Source: Saccostrea echinata
Taxonomy: Eukaryota
DNA: 64,000 bases
Direction: 5' to 3'
NCBI RefSeq assembly: GCF_033153115.1
Contig: NW_026889801.1
Coordinates: 1,364,001-1,428,000 of the forward strand
Part shown: piece by piece, positions 9,663 to 58,359 of the stretch
Layout: the number at the start of each line of letters is the position of its first letter
How positions within the stretch are numbered: position 1 is the first letter of the stretch
Notes under the pieces: model-generated
Told to the model about the DNA's origin: nothing
Database searches by the model: none
The model's input: the letters and a program-made list of their open reading frames with translations, nothing else
Made by a program: the position numbers and the translations under genes

Positions 9663-10066
9663 ATATGCTTGTGAGGGTCGCTTTTACTGCTGGATTGACC
9701 TTTGATAGCAGCTCATGGAACAGTGGGACGTTAGTGTACAATAAAGTAATCAACAACGTGGGAGGAGGGTATAACCGATACACCGGAATCTTTACTGCAC
9801 CAGTTGTTGGAAATTATATATTTTATGTCAGTATCAAAAGTTACCAACAGAAAAGTATATTTGTAGACATTGTGTTAAATGGATCTAGCAAAGTTCGAGC
9901 AGGAGCTGTAGCTAATCCGCCTCACGAAAGTTACGAGACAGGTACTAACCTGGTAACTTTACGACTACAGCAGGGGGACACGGTATGGGTCAGATATAAA
10001 CATGGTTACGGTTATTGGGTGCAAAGTGACACTCCAGTCACAACATTCTCTGGATTCCTCATTTAA
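9663..10066 (+). CDS. C1qDC copy 2, exon 3 (globular C1q domain)
   Basis: ttgtag| acceptor; VAFTAG..LVYNKVINNVGGGYN..TGIFTAPV.G.Y.F..LRLQQGDTVWV..TTFSGFLI* are hallmark gC1q motifs. Confidence 0.92.
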
Positions 10067-10214
10067 ATAATTAACTTTCAATGACTAAGCATAAAATAGA
10101 AATTTGTACACATTGTACACCTGTTTGAATATACATGTAATATTATGGATTAGGAGCCTTCCATTGAACTAAATGGATTTATATATTTTCCCTATAATTA
10201 CTACTTTTATTGGA

Positions 10215-10565
10215 TTGATTGATTGATTGTGTATTGTTTTACGTCCCATTCGAGAATTTTTCACTCATATAGAGACGTCACCATATACCGGTGAAGGGCT
10301 TCAAATTTTGACCTTTACTCGGCACTCAGGGCCATTAAGCAGTGAGGGATCTTTATCGTGCCAACGCCTGCCGTGACACTTGGCCTCGGTTTTTAAGGTC
10401 TCATCCGAAGGACCCGCAACTTTCACTTCAAAGTGCCGAGCGCATGGCGAAGGAACAGTTGCTACCTATTTTTTTATCGACTTAGGTCTGTCGCGGCCGA
10501 GATTCGAACTCACGACCTCCCGATCACGGAGCGAGCGCTCTTCCGACTGAGCTACCGTGAACGGT
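10215..10565 (-). mobile_element. Full-length tRNA-derived SINE in the 3' region of copy 2
   Basis: Minus-strand head ggtagctcagtcgg (A box) and gagttcgaatc (B box), (CAAT)n tail, ~10-bp TSD ttttattgga (10205-10214 / 10568-10577). Confidence 0.88.
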
Positions 10566-11096
10566 ATTTTTATTGGAAGACATTATACTATCTAATTATT
10601 ATTATCGTTATTATGAGATTTACTTTTGGTAATTTTTGTCCAGTAAGACTACTTAGGCTAGGCAATAAATACAGTTACAATGAAAACATATGAACGCTAC
10701 TTTTGAGTTTTCTTAAAATTGAAAATAAATACACTGCACTTGAATGCATAAACGGATAAATAAACAAATAAATGAATATTTAATAAAACGTTATACAAAT
10801 AAATATTTAAAAAGATTTTTATTACTCAAAATCCATTAAATCATCAGTTAAGAAAAAACCTTTCTTTTATAGTGTTGATACAAAAGAAAGATATGGCTAA
10901 TAAAGCAAATATAAATCAGATTATCAGCGATGGAGTACTGAGTCTCGAGAAAAGGAGCGTCTAAAGAACAATCTGCACCAAAGACAGATACACATTAGGA
11001 ATTTATGTACGCAAATGCTGTATCACATTCTCAATTTAAGTGATGTGTGATAGTGATGTTTAAGGAATCAGTGCATATATATTTGTATTTATTTAA

Positions 11097-11300
11097 AGAG
11101 GCTGGAGGGTTGTGGCCATTTTTAGACTATATTGATCTCCTTTAGAAGAAGAGCTCCATATGAAGATATAGAAAATGATCAAATTTTAAAACTAAAATTT
11201 TTGAAATTTTTCTTTGCCAAATGATAGTTGACAGCTTAAGATATCATATCTAAAAAATTAAGTTAAATCTGGTGGTTAATTTGTTGACCCCCCAGCCTCC
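11097..11300. mobile_element. ~205-bp TTAA-flanked MITE (Kolobok-like), copy B
   Basis: ttaa|agaggctggagggt ... accccccagcctcc|ttaa; paralogous to 8399-8604. Confidence 0.82.
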
Positions 11301-54820: not shown

Positions 54821-57277
54821 CAAACAAACTCCTAGCAAAGAAATGTTAGAAAAAAGTATCAGAATGAATGTATCACTCCCTACTCCAGAGAACCGAACCA
54901 GTGTAAGAACATGAATAACTCAAAACAGCTACTGAAAGTTATCACAATTTTAAAAAAAATATTTTTAAAATAAGATGACATCCTGTAGCAAGAAGCAATG
55001 CAATTACGTTAATATCCATATTTAATGATGAAATAGAGTATCATCTTTATATAAAAGGCTTTCGTTCTTTAACTTTAATTTTTTATTTATTTATTTATTT
55101 TTTATTTTTATTTATTTATTATTATAATTATCATTATTTTGGAAATCCTTCCTTATTGAATTAGGAGAACCCCATTTTATAAAATGGGTATAGATATTTA
55201 TTTTATTTTAAACTACCAATTAAAAAAAATATTTTGCTTAAGACTTTAAAAATGTTTTTTAGAGATAAGTAATTAAATTGTTTCATAATATTAAATTTTA
55301 TGCTTATTCAGAGTTTAAAATACTGGGTAATATGCCACTGCATTTAATTTTTCAGACAAGTTCAAGTTGCAGAAGAGTTCTTTGGTCTTCTCAAACAGTC
55401 GAGGTTTTCTTCTCCTGTCCAAACTTCAAAATTTAGTGAAAAATGAGGAGACAAACTTTACAAATGAAAGAATTTTCTAAAATCACATAGAGCAGTGAAT
55501 CTGGTGCCTTTTGTTGTGTTTAACCATAATAAAAGCTAGTGACAGTAGTGTAGGTAGAACTTTAGTCCTACATTGCTCATTAACTTTTGAAAACAAAGGG
55601 AATAGCATACCAGTTGAGATTTAGAGTGGCGAGTACTATATGAGAAAACAACGGAAACCATCCAAAAGTAGAAGCACCACAAGTCCATATATTAAATTAA
55701 TCAAGTTCAGAATTTTGAATGTGCATGTCTGCTTGAAAAGTACTGTAGTTTAAAAAGCATTTTTTTTTTTAAATCTTGGGATGGAATGATGATTATAAAG
55801 AACTGATATTGTAACAACTTTTCTTCTACAAATTTTGATCTTTGTATAATGTACAATGTAATTTATAAATCATGTAAATTGTTAACATTTAATAAACATG
55901 TTAAACCTTTTTTGCAAATTGGTCATTGTTGATTTCTTAAGAATAAACTTGGAAATTTTCATATTAAAACATTTAGTTTAGTATGTTGAACAAAATGACA
56001 TATTTGTTAAATATGCAATTAAAAATATCATATTGCTGCTCATATAATGGTAGAGTAAATCAAATGTTGCAGCTGCATCATTTTCTGCAGTTGAACAAAA
56101 TCCTTTACATTCCTTTCATATACATGTAGTATGATTTAGAAGGAGTCAAAGAACTTATTACATGAATTTATAATTTTATCTATAAATGTTGAGAGTTTTA
56201 GGACATTGCTAGCAGAGACTAACATACTCTGACTTGTTTTTACATAATAATTGTCTTCATGTAGCATAATGTATTCTCTGTTGTTATATATATTAAGTTA
56301 GTATTTGACAAAAGTAAAAGCTGAAAAACTAAATAAAAAAACATAAATAAATAAATGCTTATATAAGAAGAATCACCCAAATAGATAGTGATTGGTCATC
56401 ATGTTTACTATATGAAAAAAGTAATACAAGAAAACTGGATGCACCTGCTTAGTTTTAACAGCTGTTTAAAATAAAACCAGAAAAAAAATCTGGAATCATC
56501 AAAGTTGGTTAATTAATATACAGAATTTCGATCCCGATCATAATTCTCTCCAAAACTATTTTAGAGAAATAAAATTAATTCCAGAGTAAACTTGGTACAT
56601 TGAATAGAAAAATTCATAATAATGTGATAAATTTGATTAAGAAACAATTCAATAAAAGTTAAATTTTACACACAATGCAGTTAGATTTAGGAAAAAATCT
56701 TGTCAAACTTCAAGCAATTTATCAAAATTTCTCAATAGTTTTCCTTTTCATTAAAAACTGCTAATTGATTTTTCCACACTTTTCAAACTGGAAAACTAAT
56801 AATGAGCAGTTGTTTTATTTTTCCATGTGTAATTAGCTACATAATGTGTATGCTGTTTTTAATAATATTGTTTTAAATTCACAATGTTTGTGACATCCAA
56901 AATGTCTTGACATATAATTACAATGGTTACTATGGATACGACCTAGATACCAACTCCATGACAACTAATACAAGAAGGATACAGATTCCTCTCAAAATAA
57001 AATAGGGTTAGAAAATTTATGAAAAACAACAACACTTGTTACTTCTGTACTAAACTTCCTCTTTTTTGGTTGACATTTTGGCCCATAAATGCCCGAATCT
57101 ATTTATAGTAACATATCACAGTCTGGATGTGCCTTTTTGGAAAAATCATGATTTATTTTAATTAGTACTGTATCAAGTAATAATATAAAAATATTGGCCG
57201 AATATGAAATATTCGACTTATCACCGATTGCCTGATTCTTACGTGGACCTGTACTTAAATATTCGTCAAAACAATAT

Positions 57278-57510
57278 ATCGACGACAATATATGCCGATC
57301 TTGACTGTACATATTGTCGCTGACGACAATATGTGCTGGTGCTTGACTGTACATTTTGTCGTCCAATATGCAGGAGGAAAATGAGGCTCGTCTCGGTACA
57401 TATTGTCGCCGGCGACAATATGTACCGATGGACGACAATATGTGCAGTGAGGGTAGGTACATATTGTCGCCGTCGACAATATGTACAAAACGACAATATG
57501 TACCGTCACA
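57278..57510. repeat. Cluster of direct and inverted gacaatatgt/acatattgtc motifs (probable transposon subterminal array)
   Basis: About ten copies of the motif in alternating orientation, ending gacaatatgtaccgtcaca. Confidence 0.75.
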
Positions 57511-57943
57511 AACCCACTTCTCCGATTCCATACTTCCAACTTTATATTGAAGTGCTTAAAATATGTATGCTTTTAAACTAAATTTATTTTTTATGTAAAC
57601 TTATTATGTATTCTATCACATGACTTTAATATTAATGGGAATAACATAGGTTAGCACACTCTATATTGAATTTAGTCTGGTCACCTGACTTATATGGGTT
57701 CCAATGTAAAACGTTTTGCAATAACTTTAATAGGGCTCCAGTTGAATGATAAAAATCTAATACATTTTATTTCTAAAGTTGCTTTAGTCATTTATTATAT
57801 CTAAAGAATTATAACTGATGGAAGTTTATGTAATTTGTAATACATAAAAACATAAGGATATGATATTAAATAGATAGGATATTTAGTTGTCCTGTACGAT
57901 TTCTTTTTACAAACGACTTTATTCCACTCTTAATGTATTATAG

Positions 57944-58359
57944 ATTTGCCGAATAGTGTATCTGTAGCCTTCACTGCTGGGGTGAGGTTAAGGAGTAGTT
58001 CCTGGAGCGGCGGGATATTGGTGTTCGACAAAGTTATCAACAACGTAGGAGATGGGTATAATCTGTCCAATGGAATATTTACCGCGCCCACTGGCGGGAA
58101 CTATATGTTCTATGTCAGTATCCAAAGTGATAGTAACAATGCAGATATTTGGATAGACATTGTGCTAAACGGATCTAGTAAGGCCCGAGCAATCGCGGAA
58201 GTGTTTAACAGCAACGTTGGCTATGAAACAGGTACAAACATGGTGACATTACGACTTAAGCAAGGGGGTCAGGTTTGGATCAAACATAACCACGGTAAAG
58301 GTTATTACACCCAATTAACTGACGCCCCTATAACAACATTTTCTGGATTCCTCATATAA
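57944..58359 (+). CDS. Intact, divergent globular C1q exon (copy 5 / orphan head)
   Basis: ttatag|AT TTG CCG.. phase-1 acceptor; VAFTAG..LVFDKVINNVGDGYN..GIFTAPTGGNYMF..LKQGGQVWI..TTFSGFLI*; no stops or frameshifts. Expression unproven. Confidence 0.8.

Follow-up and report, generated by a model that had tools for sequence, protein, structure and literature searches.

Loop diversification in a tandem cluster of C1q-like type II genes from the oyster Saccostrea echinata

The stretch of S. echinata DNA analyzed here, hereafter the window (64,000 nucleotides; contig NW_026889801.1, positions 1,364,001 to 1,428,000), holds C1q-like type II genes in a tandem array, with a putative signal peptide, a coiled coil, and a C1q head; exact protein matches agree with the species. 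The heads keep a conserved beta-sandwich core, and substitutions and length changes are concentrated in four segments that correspond to the AA’, CD, EF, and GH loops. In the explanation we consider probable, the cluster evolves by birth and death and encodes secreted pattern-recognition proteins of the C1q-like type II kind; the outer face of the head would be a ligand-binding surface where a few residues come under episodic positive selection and ligands shift. If these proteins behave like their homologs, chains would be trimerized by the coiled coil, and the three heads would form a joint outer face pointing away from the stalk. This face would be the ligand-binding surface, released from folding constraint, and after duplication some 6–13% of head codons, mostly in EF and CD, may have been driven by episodic positive selection, with the selected residues shifting which microbial or glycan ligands are bound.

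Tandem expansion and positively selected head sites have been published for the sC1q-like type II tandem clusters of Crassostrea virginica (Gerdol, Greco, Pallavicini 2019, PMC6835236), the same process in another species and another cluster. Since the phenomenon is expected and published, it will not surprise a specialist; the diversification of tandem C1q heads is real and largely known, and the structural mapping of the loops is a modest addition. Bivalves carry hundreds of C1qDC genes, the residues that recognize microbial patterns are described as unknown, and linking selected sites to three-dimensional structure and ligand binding was called beyond reach (PMC6835236). In the literature covered (mostly the running text of open-access papers), we found no paper mapping selected sites of bivalve C1qDC proteins to these loops. 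The available parts of PMC8878817 and PMC8678459 hold nothing on these loops, the selection results in the latter concerning TLRs; Fig. 3B of PMC6835236 plots its sites along an alignment keyed to a solved structure, and some of the loop mapping may already appear there. Fast-evolving sites on four loops, together with the equivalents of the C1ql1 cleft described below, make what was a general hypothesis open to a specific loop-swap test with two intact neighbors (copies 2 and 3).

Gene copies and their state

All five tandem copies (0–4; Table 1) lie on the + strand, with head identity between pairs of 60–72%, that is, above 50%. Two are intact (copies 2 and 3), one is intact only if its second exon is skipped (copy 1), one has a broken first exon (copy 4), and one is a pseudogene (copy 0), so that three of the five are damaged. 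The pseudogene does not appear in the initial annotation, whose four heads, conserved motifs, and variable segments were all recovered in place on the + strand, each head being a full Pfam C1q domain (PF00386 in 4/4 heads at 79.5–91.6 bits against a curated cut-off of 23.7, spanning the full profile, 1–127 of 127).

Table 1. Exons of the C1q-like type II cluster (window positions), with loop coordinates under each head.
Feature	Position	Strand	Description
Copy 0, pseudogene	2334..3830	+	Decayed signal/coiled-coil exon ~2334-2989 (stops, frameshifts) and remnant of the last third of the C1q head ~3695-3830
Copy 1 exon 1	7477..8173	+	Open frame; signal-peptide-like N-terminus and coiled coil; 100% match to database model P0005; heptad periodicity p=0.002
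Copy 1 exon 2, frameshifted	9348..9472	+	If included, stop at ~residue 249; if skipped, frame kept (database model P0005, 366 aa)
Copy 1 exon 3, C1q head 1	9663..10066	+	AA’ 9695-9706, CD 9842-9856, EF 9902-9934, GH 9995-10024
Copy 2 exon 1	18959..19628	+	Open; signal-peptide-like N-terminus and coiled coil
Copy 2 exon 2	25893..26012	+	Lacks the donor used in copy 3; with the in-frame GT that follows 26012 (or 26018), the protein has 398-400 aa; model P0001 takes the 26012 donor
Copy 2 exon 3, C1q head 2	26191..26594	+	AA’ 26223-26234, CD 26370-26384, EF 26430-26462, GH 26523-26552
Copy 3 exon 1	31982..32693	+	Open; signal-peptide-like N-terminus and coiled coil
Copy 3 exon 2	39021..39149	+	Intact; canonical splice sites
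Copy 3 exon 3, C1q head 3 (modelled head)	39471..39874	+	AA’ 39503-39514, CD 39650-39664, EF 39710-39742, GH 39803-39832
Copy 4 exon 1, broken	43396..44118	+	Lost start codon, in-frame stops, frameshifts
Copy 4 exon 3, C1q head 4	57944..58359	+	Open frame; AA’ 57982-57993, CD 58129-58146, EF 58192-58224, GH 58285-58317

A hydrophobic N-terminus of about 20 residues, judged by inspection, is present in copies 1–3 and lost in copy 4. The coiled-coil stalk is visible as a 3.5-residue hydrophobic periodicity in all 3 intact first exons (p = 0.001–0.005), which contain no Gly-X-Y runs (collagen repeats); a non-collagen tail precedes the single C-terminal C1q domain. No exon 2 was found between the broken first exon of copy 4 and head 4, nor did a search upstream of head 4 find an intact exon with a signal peptide; database model P0121 fuses this head to an unrelated open stretch at ~48497–48655. 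Relaxation of the head-4 framework is not significant (dN/dS 0.22 versus 0.17, p = 0.44), and head 4 is therefore at most recently orphaned. The proposal that each paralogue has a different specificity is weakened by the state of the genes: in copy 4 the first exon is broken and the second missing, and in copy 1 the second exon is frameshifted.

Variability and predicted placement of the four segments

The initial annotation described hypervariability confined to four segments. The segments are real and variation is concentrated in them, but they do not confine it: of 62 variable columns, 36 lie outside. Among the 129 head columns of the four heads, at least three residues occur in 20 of 30 segment columns versus 9 of 99 elsewhere (head-3 positions 39, 40, 49, 53, 67, 104, 107, 124, and 126), a contrast that is circular because the segments were chosen by eye. 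The pattern repeats among 104 other oyster-like heads, where entropy in the 20 closest correlates with variability in the four heads (Spearman 0.73), and in an independent set of four unrelated metagenome heads at least three residues occur in 13 of 27 segment columns versus 18 of 98 others. For the relatives, 150 of 164 proteins had full heads; removal of 4 window-derived models and of fish, mussel, clam, pearl-oyster, or otherwise distant entries left 128, and removal of near-duplicates at 90% left 104, those with no species name being classed as oyster-like by similarity alone. The independent set came from six loci examined (L001–L006, 44–57% identical) out of 80 metagenome loci; L005, which has a frameshift, and L004, which is too divergent, were left out.

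The segments are not uniform. Segment 1 is weak family-wide, with a mean AA’ entropy of 0.82 versus 0.73 bits for other loops and hypervariability only at positions 15 and 17, and residues G115, G117, and Y118 are invariant within segments. Length varies most in EF (11 lengths across 108 heads), followed by GH (5) and CD (4), whereas DE and FG are each constant in length in 108/108.

Head 3, the only head modelled, is predicted with a pLDDT of 96 to adopt the jelly-roll gC1q fold, with a Foldseek TM of 0.88 to caprin-2 and a Z of 21.4 to C1ql1 (rmsd 1.5 Å across 127 residues). In the strand order of this model, the segments follow strands A, C, E, and G, which identifies them with the AA’, CD, EF, and GH loops, and in the published gC1q topology the termini lie at the base and the antiparallel sheets are A’AHCF and B’BGDE (PMC3342031). 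Together with the match to C1ql1 residues, these features support the earlier proposal that the four segments are apical, a position predicted to lie at the pole opposite the termini.

The vertebrate C1ql1/C1ql3 gC1q domains (PDB 9lkk, 4qq2, 8vwy; PMC12749725) share this fold, and C1ql1 offers a residue-level comparison, although identity to the oyster heads is only ~28%. Segment 3 corresponds to the top Ca2+ loop L5-6 of C1ql1 and spans D208/D210; these residues bind the top Ca2+ ions (PMC12749725), and their equivalents are not kept in the oyster heads. The BAI3 cleft (L7-8, D235, W191; PMC12749725) overlaps segment 4 and position 67, and positions 67, 113, 121, and 126 align with W191, D235, N243, and Y247, all part of the BAI3 interface (PMC12749725). 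Acidic equivalents of D193 (interface Ca2+) and D214 (axial Ca2+; PMC12749725) are kept in 4/4 heads at positions 69 and 92. The protein partner of C1ql1 is fixed, whereas the oyster family has expanded and varies. Human complement C1q likewise has a jelly-roll head with conserved strands and variable loops (PMC3342031), but it is a heterotrimer on a collagen stalk and the oyster proteins have no collagen repeats. C-reactive protein is thought to bind human C1q at the apex and models place IgG around the equator (PMC3342031), so not all C1q ligands are apical.

These correspondences allow a more specific reading, possible in our view and held tentatively, in which the AA’, CD, EF, and GH loops would form a germline “paratope” common to oyster C1q-like type II proteins. 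The length-variable EF loop (8–20 residues between anchors) would crown the three-fold axis, the CD/GH cleft round the conserved Asp69 Ca2+ site, with variable positions 67, 113, 121, and 126 along its walls, would correspond to the C1ql1 cleft for BAI3, and positive selection at these positions would set the microbial or glycan specificity of each paralogue. If true, this would be a residue-level map of the binding site called virtually unknown in PMC6835236.

The segments had also been described as rich in Tyr, Trp, His, and Asn. Enrichment in Tyr and His holds, with a combined Tyr, Trp, and His fraction of 0.23–0.26 in segments versus 0.02–0.04 in other loops in all three sets, part of the Tyr coming from invariant Y118. 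Enrichment in Trp and Asn does not: Trp stands at 0.003 among the 20 closest relatives, and Asn in segments versus other loops is 0.13 versus 0.10 in the four heads and 0.08 versus 0.11 and 0.04 versus 0.08 in relatives.

Antibody CDRs are loops rich in Tyr that vary in sequence and length and sit at one pole of a conserved beta-sandwich. The oyster loops are alike in these features, and “CDR-like” stands as an analogy, but these heads are germline paralogues of another fold with a mean dN/dS near 1. The window sequence carries no sign of rearrangement or hypermutation that would indicate somatic diversification; a single germline exon encodes each head, and neither a cassette array nor additional loop segments are present there.

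Selection and competing explanations

By structure-defined class, dN/dS in the four heads is 0.79 in apical loops, 0.35 in other loops, and 0.16 in strands (apical versus other loops, p = 0.0015; 0.006 with multi-nucleotide rates), and in the independent set it is 0.98, 0.22, and 0.30, respectively (p = 3e-8). Neither apical value differs from 1, and the hand-picked segments, with a mean of 1.28, do not either (p = 0.23). Taken together, the loops evolve close to the neutral rate and not well above it. Standard site models on the four heads find a small class above 1 (M1a/M2a p = 0.005, M8a/M8 p = 0.002; M7/M8, the check proposed in the initial annotation, p = 0.0005), still at p = 0.003 without head 4, and none of 81 null simulations gave an LRT as large as the one observed. 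Eleven of 14 flagged sites lie within segments, the best supported being codon 39725–39727 of head 3 (position 86); the M2a posterior exceeds 0.95 at one site only (naive empirical Bayes, four sequences). When double and triple changes are left free, significance is lost (p = 0.26, 0.13, and 0.065 for the same three tests; three heads, p = 0.20), and the independent set is weak (p = 0.13, 0.04, and 0.02; p = 0.75 with multi-nucleotide rates). Diversifying selection on head sites is moderately supported by these codon comparisons.

The loops evolve more slowly on the head-4 branch (dN/dS 0.37). A branch model giving 1.8 for loops outside head 4 (p = 0.007 versus 1) was set aside as post hoc and based on hand-picked segments. 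Local hypermutation was also considered and is unsupported, the synonymous rate of the segments being equal to that of the rest (ratio 1.04).

It is unlikely, if far from negligible, that relaxed constraint alone produced this pattern. Solvent-exposed outer loops, distant from both the stalk and the hydrophobic base of the trimer, would then drift neutrally in redundant duplicates, dN/dS above 1 would only appear through multi-nucleotide mutations and uncertain loop alignment, and specificities need not differ. The near-neutral apical rates in both sets fit this, as do the decay of the cluster and the fact that variable loops are a general trait of gC1q domains (PMC3342031), and a neutral model with double changes fits as well as the selection model (lnL −1334.98 versus −1335.31). 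To absorb the signal, however, about 16% of neutral events would have to be within-codon doubles, whereas near-neutral paralogous DNA of the window has an excess of adjacent changes of about 3% (93 observed versus 80 expected, 471 substitutions). With doubles fixed at 2–5% the test gives p = 0.012–0.04, and at 8%, the stalk estimate, p = 0.09. The stalk itself has no class above 1 (LRT 0), and the Tyr/His enrichment is kept over 104 relatives, a persistence not expected of drift by itself.

The variable face might bind proteins, metal ions, or matrix (Ca2+-dependent partners, biomineral or mucus roles) and not microbial glycans, like vertebrate C1ql1/BAI3. The nearest structures (C1ql1/C1ql3 and caprin-2) and the conserved acidic residues at positions 69 and 92 point this way, but we consider it improbable: fast duplication, loss, and loop turnover would be more in keeping with foreign ligands that vary than with a host partner that stays the same, and those invertebrate C1qDC proteins that have been characterized have microbial patterns and glycans as ligands (PMC10672478). 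Gene conversion that homogenizes the framework or patches the loops, making the mosaic a recombination artifact, is already disfavored and very improbable, for although the tandem arrangement is favorable and copies 3 and 4 are mildly discordant (differences at 17/57 fourfold sites in exon 1 but 21/43 in the head), the framework dS of heads 1–3 (0.45–0.71) matches that of the stalk (0.37–0.71), the segment synonymous rate is not raised, and identical-codon runs are not significant in any of 6 pairs (p = 0.06–0.92).

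Organization and decay of the gene cluster

The window has the base composition of AT-rich animal DNA (GC about 0.25-0.37, with introns and repeats), and its exons are exact matches to database proteins named Saccostrea echinata: P0005 consists of exons 1 and 3 of copy 1, exactly, while copy 2 is matched by P0001, the last two exons of copy 3 by P0123, and the C1q domain of copy 4 by P0121. Five related C1q-like gene copies (copies 0-4) are arranged head to tail, all on the + strand. In the gene plan, exon 1 encodes a hydrophobic N-terminus followed by a coiled coil, exon 2 is short, and exon 3 encodes a complete C1q domain (the head), which matches the architecture that PMC6835236 terms sC1q-like type II. 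The coiled coil has a 3.5-residue periodicity in all three intact exon 1 sequences (p = 0.001-0.005), in which we found no Gly-X-Y runs, and the heads of copies 1-4 all exceed the Pfam cut-off. Stalk identity is 57-62% overall, lower than that of the heads (69-72%, copies 1-3).

The initial annotation had proposed four paralogues, each with its own specificity, and had overlooked copy 0; because copies 1 and 4 are damaged, this number shrinks to 2 or 3 proteins at best. The database gene models in this cluster look unreliable: the one for head 4 (P0121) includes an unrelated open stretch and has no signal peptide, P0123 leaves out the intact exon 1 of copy 3, and P0001 begins at an internal Met. 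The broken exon 1 of copy 4 is nearest to that of copy 3 (nucleotide identity 81%; differences at 17 of 57 fourfold sites). Head 4, however, lies furthest from the other heads and differs from head 3 at 21 of 43 fourfold sites. This mild contrast may reflect head/stalk exchange through introns.

Gene copies and neighbouring features of the cluster
Feature	Position	Strand	Description
Copy 0		+	Pseudogene with head remnant
Copy 1		+	Exon 2 frameshifted; full head made only with exon 2 skipped, as database model assumes
Copy 2		+	Intact only given an alternative in-frame donor closing exon 2; 398-400 aa
Copy 3		+	Intact; canonical splice sites
Copy 4 exon 1	43396-44118	+	Start codon gone; stops and frameshifts; no exon 2
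Copy 4 head	57944-58359	+	Open; 13.8 kb downstream of broken exon 1
P0123 model	39021-39874
Open stretch	48497-48655		Joined to head 4 in P0121
Further gene, first coding exon	62299-62520	+	48% identity to N-terminus of P0018
Non-coding homologous pair	18433-18815; 42710-43081		Upstream of first coding exons of copies 2 and 4; 66% identity
Short tandem arrays	23911-24186; 30228-30496; 49438-49908; 53873-54725		Periods 146 and 155 bases
Fragmentary open frames	35829-37131	-	In first intron of copy 3
Fragmentary open frames	46012-46811	-	Between copy 4 exon 1 and head 4

Variable loops and their place on the fold

The framework motifs and four variable segments described in the initial annotation are present as stated, and the variable-loop feature is real. 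Variability is enriched in the segments, where 20 of 30 columns hold at least three residues against 9 of the 99 outside them (129 head columns), but it is not confined to four loops as had been claimed, since 36 of 62 variable columns lie elsewhere. The pattern is family-wide among 104 non-redundant oyster-like heads. In the 20 closest, mean entropy is 2.18 bits in the CD loop, 1.87 in EF, 1.15 in GH and 0.82 in AA' (together, the apical loops), against 0.73 in other loops and 0.58 in strands (apical versus other loops, p = 0.004; among the 84 heads further away, p = 3e-5). Length changes map onto the same loops as substitutions: among 108 heads there are 11 length variants of EF, 5 of GH and 4 of CD, and a single length of DE and FG in all 108, of B'B and BC in 107, and of AA' in 106. 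Tyr, Trp and His make up 0.23-0.26 of segment residues and 0.02-0.04 of those in other loops. The proposed richness in Tyr, Trp, His and Asn holds for Tyr and His, an invariant Y118 supplying part of the Tyr excess; Trp and Asn are not enriched across the family.

A structure model of head 3 (94-row alignment, pLDDT 96) has strands at positions 7-11, 28-33, 43-45, 50-59, 66-72, 75-82, 93-102, 107-115 and 128-133, which we labelled from family nomenclature. Strand A is followed by segment 1; segment 2 corresponds to the CD loop, segment 3 spans the end of E together with the EF loop, and segment 4 runs from the end of G to the middle of the GH loop. PMC3342031 describes the gC1q topology as antiparallel sheets A'-A-H-C-F and B'-B-G-D-E, with the N- and C-termini located at the base. 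Strands A and C therefore end, and F and H begin, on the side facing away from the stalk, and all four loops would thus emerge at that pole, in agreement with the apical position first proposed. As the model is of a single head, whose long AA' and GH loops may descend partly along the side, "outer face and adjoining cleft" is a safer description than "apex".

The model superposes on C1ql1 with Z 21.4 and rmsd 1.5 A over 127 residues. By sequence alignment, with C1ql1 numbering set by the residue pattern in PMC12749725, D208 and D210, which coordinate the top axial Ca2+ ions in that source, correspond to head positions 86 and 88 (head-3 numbering), and D214 to position 92, Glu or Asp in all four heads. 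The BAI3-interface residues W191, D193, D235, N243 and Y247 fall at positions 67, 69, 113, 121 and 126; Asp69 is conserved in all four heads, and positions 67 and 126 are highly variable, though outside the segments.

Rates and tests for selection

With classes fixed by structure, dN/dS is 0.79 in apical loops (1.7 in EF alone), 0.35 in other loops and 0.16 in strands; the segments themselves have a mean of 1.28, which does not differ significantly from 1 (p = 0.23). Four out-of-sample oyster-like heads on metagenome contigs (loci L001, L002, L003 and L006), whose parent genes may not be intact, gave 0.98, 0.22 and 0.30, respectively (apical versus other loops, p = 3e-8). Apical loops thus evolve at about the neutral rate, with other loops constrained. 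Synonymous rates are even between segments and framework, and dS is the same in framework and stalk; neither gene conversion nor hypermutation is therefore needed.

Diversifying selection had also been proposed. Codon models (GY94, F3x4, own implementation; 129 gap-free codons of four heads) favoured it by M7/M8 (p = 0.0005), M8a/M8 (p = 0.002) and M1a/M2a (p = 0.005; 9% of sites with dN/dS about 6), and without head 4 the site test still gave p = 0.003. M8 posteriors exceed 0.5 at 14 sites, 11 of them inside the segments, and the M2a posterior exceeds 0.95 (naive empirical Bayes) at position 86 only. The stalk exon of copies 1-3 yielded no class with dN/dS above 1 (LRT 0, mean 0.43).

Multinucleotide changes could produce such a signal. 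Of 81 neutral simulations run with 3.5% double changes, 4 were significant at the nominal 5% level and none attained the observed statistic. Holding doubles at 2, 3.5, 5 and 8% gives p values of 0.012, 0.023, 0.04 and 0.09; when double and triple changes are freely fitted, significance is lost (p = 0.26 for M1a/M2a, 0.13 for M8a/M8 and 0.065 for M7/M8). The free fit requires about 16% doubles; the excess of adjacent changes in near-neutral paralogous DNA of the window is about 3%. Site tests on the out-of-sample heads were weak (p = 0.13, 0.04 and 0.02, in that order of tests). A few sites probably exceed the neutral rate, and positive selection on loop changes has moderate support.

The metagenome contigs also hold an oyster-like head with a frameshift (L005, 601-992), and many carry distant C1q-like sequence at about 25-40% identity across most of the head.

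A possible mechanism, precedents and neighbouring sequence

The architecture, the decay of copies, the loop map and the contrast in rates are observed. Beyond these, the protein would be secreted and presumably trimerised by its coiled coil, with a conserved core and base and outer loops serving as the putative binding face. If copies arise by unequal crossing-over and some decay, the survivors would gather changes in the loops, some of them under selection, and these changes would shift which ligands are bound; by analogy with other invertebrate C1qDC proteins (PMC10672478), the ligands may be glycan or microbial.

The phenomenon itself is already published. PMC6835236 describes tandem clusters of C1qDC genes in which 5-10% of head sites are under positive selection, with a concentration in a hypervariable C-terminal part that is rich in gaps, and PMC3342031 treats variable loops on conserved strands as a general gC1q trait. 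We found no literature assigning selected sites of bivalve C1qDC proteins to the AA'/CD/EF/GH face or the C1ql1 cleft, although figures, supplements and subscription papers may contain such a mapping; this explicit placement is the possible addition here.

P0018, to which the further downstream gene is similar, is a C1q-domain protein with an N-terminus of a different type. Because the S. cucullata model P0002 joins a head-4-like domain to a stretch similar to that downstream exon, its layout suggests that S. cucullata shares the gene order around head 4. The homologous non-coding pair may represent a promoter or 5' untranslated exon common to both copies. The short tandem arrays, two of the four adjoined by GTCT microsatellites, look like satellite or mobile-element repeats, and the fragmentary frames give the impression of decayed transposase and reverse-transcriptase sequence.
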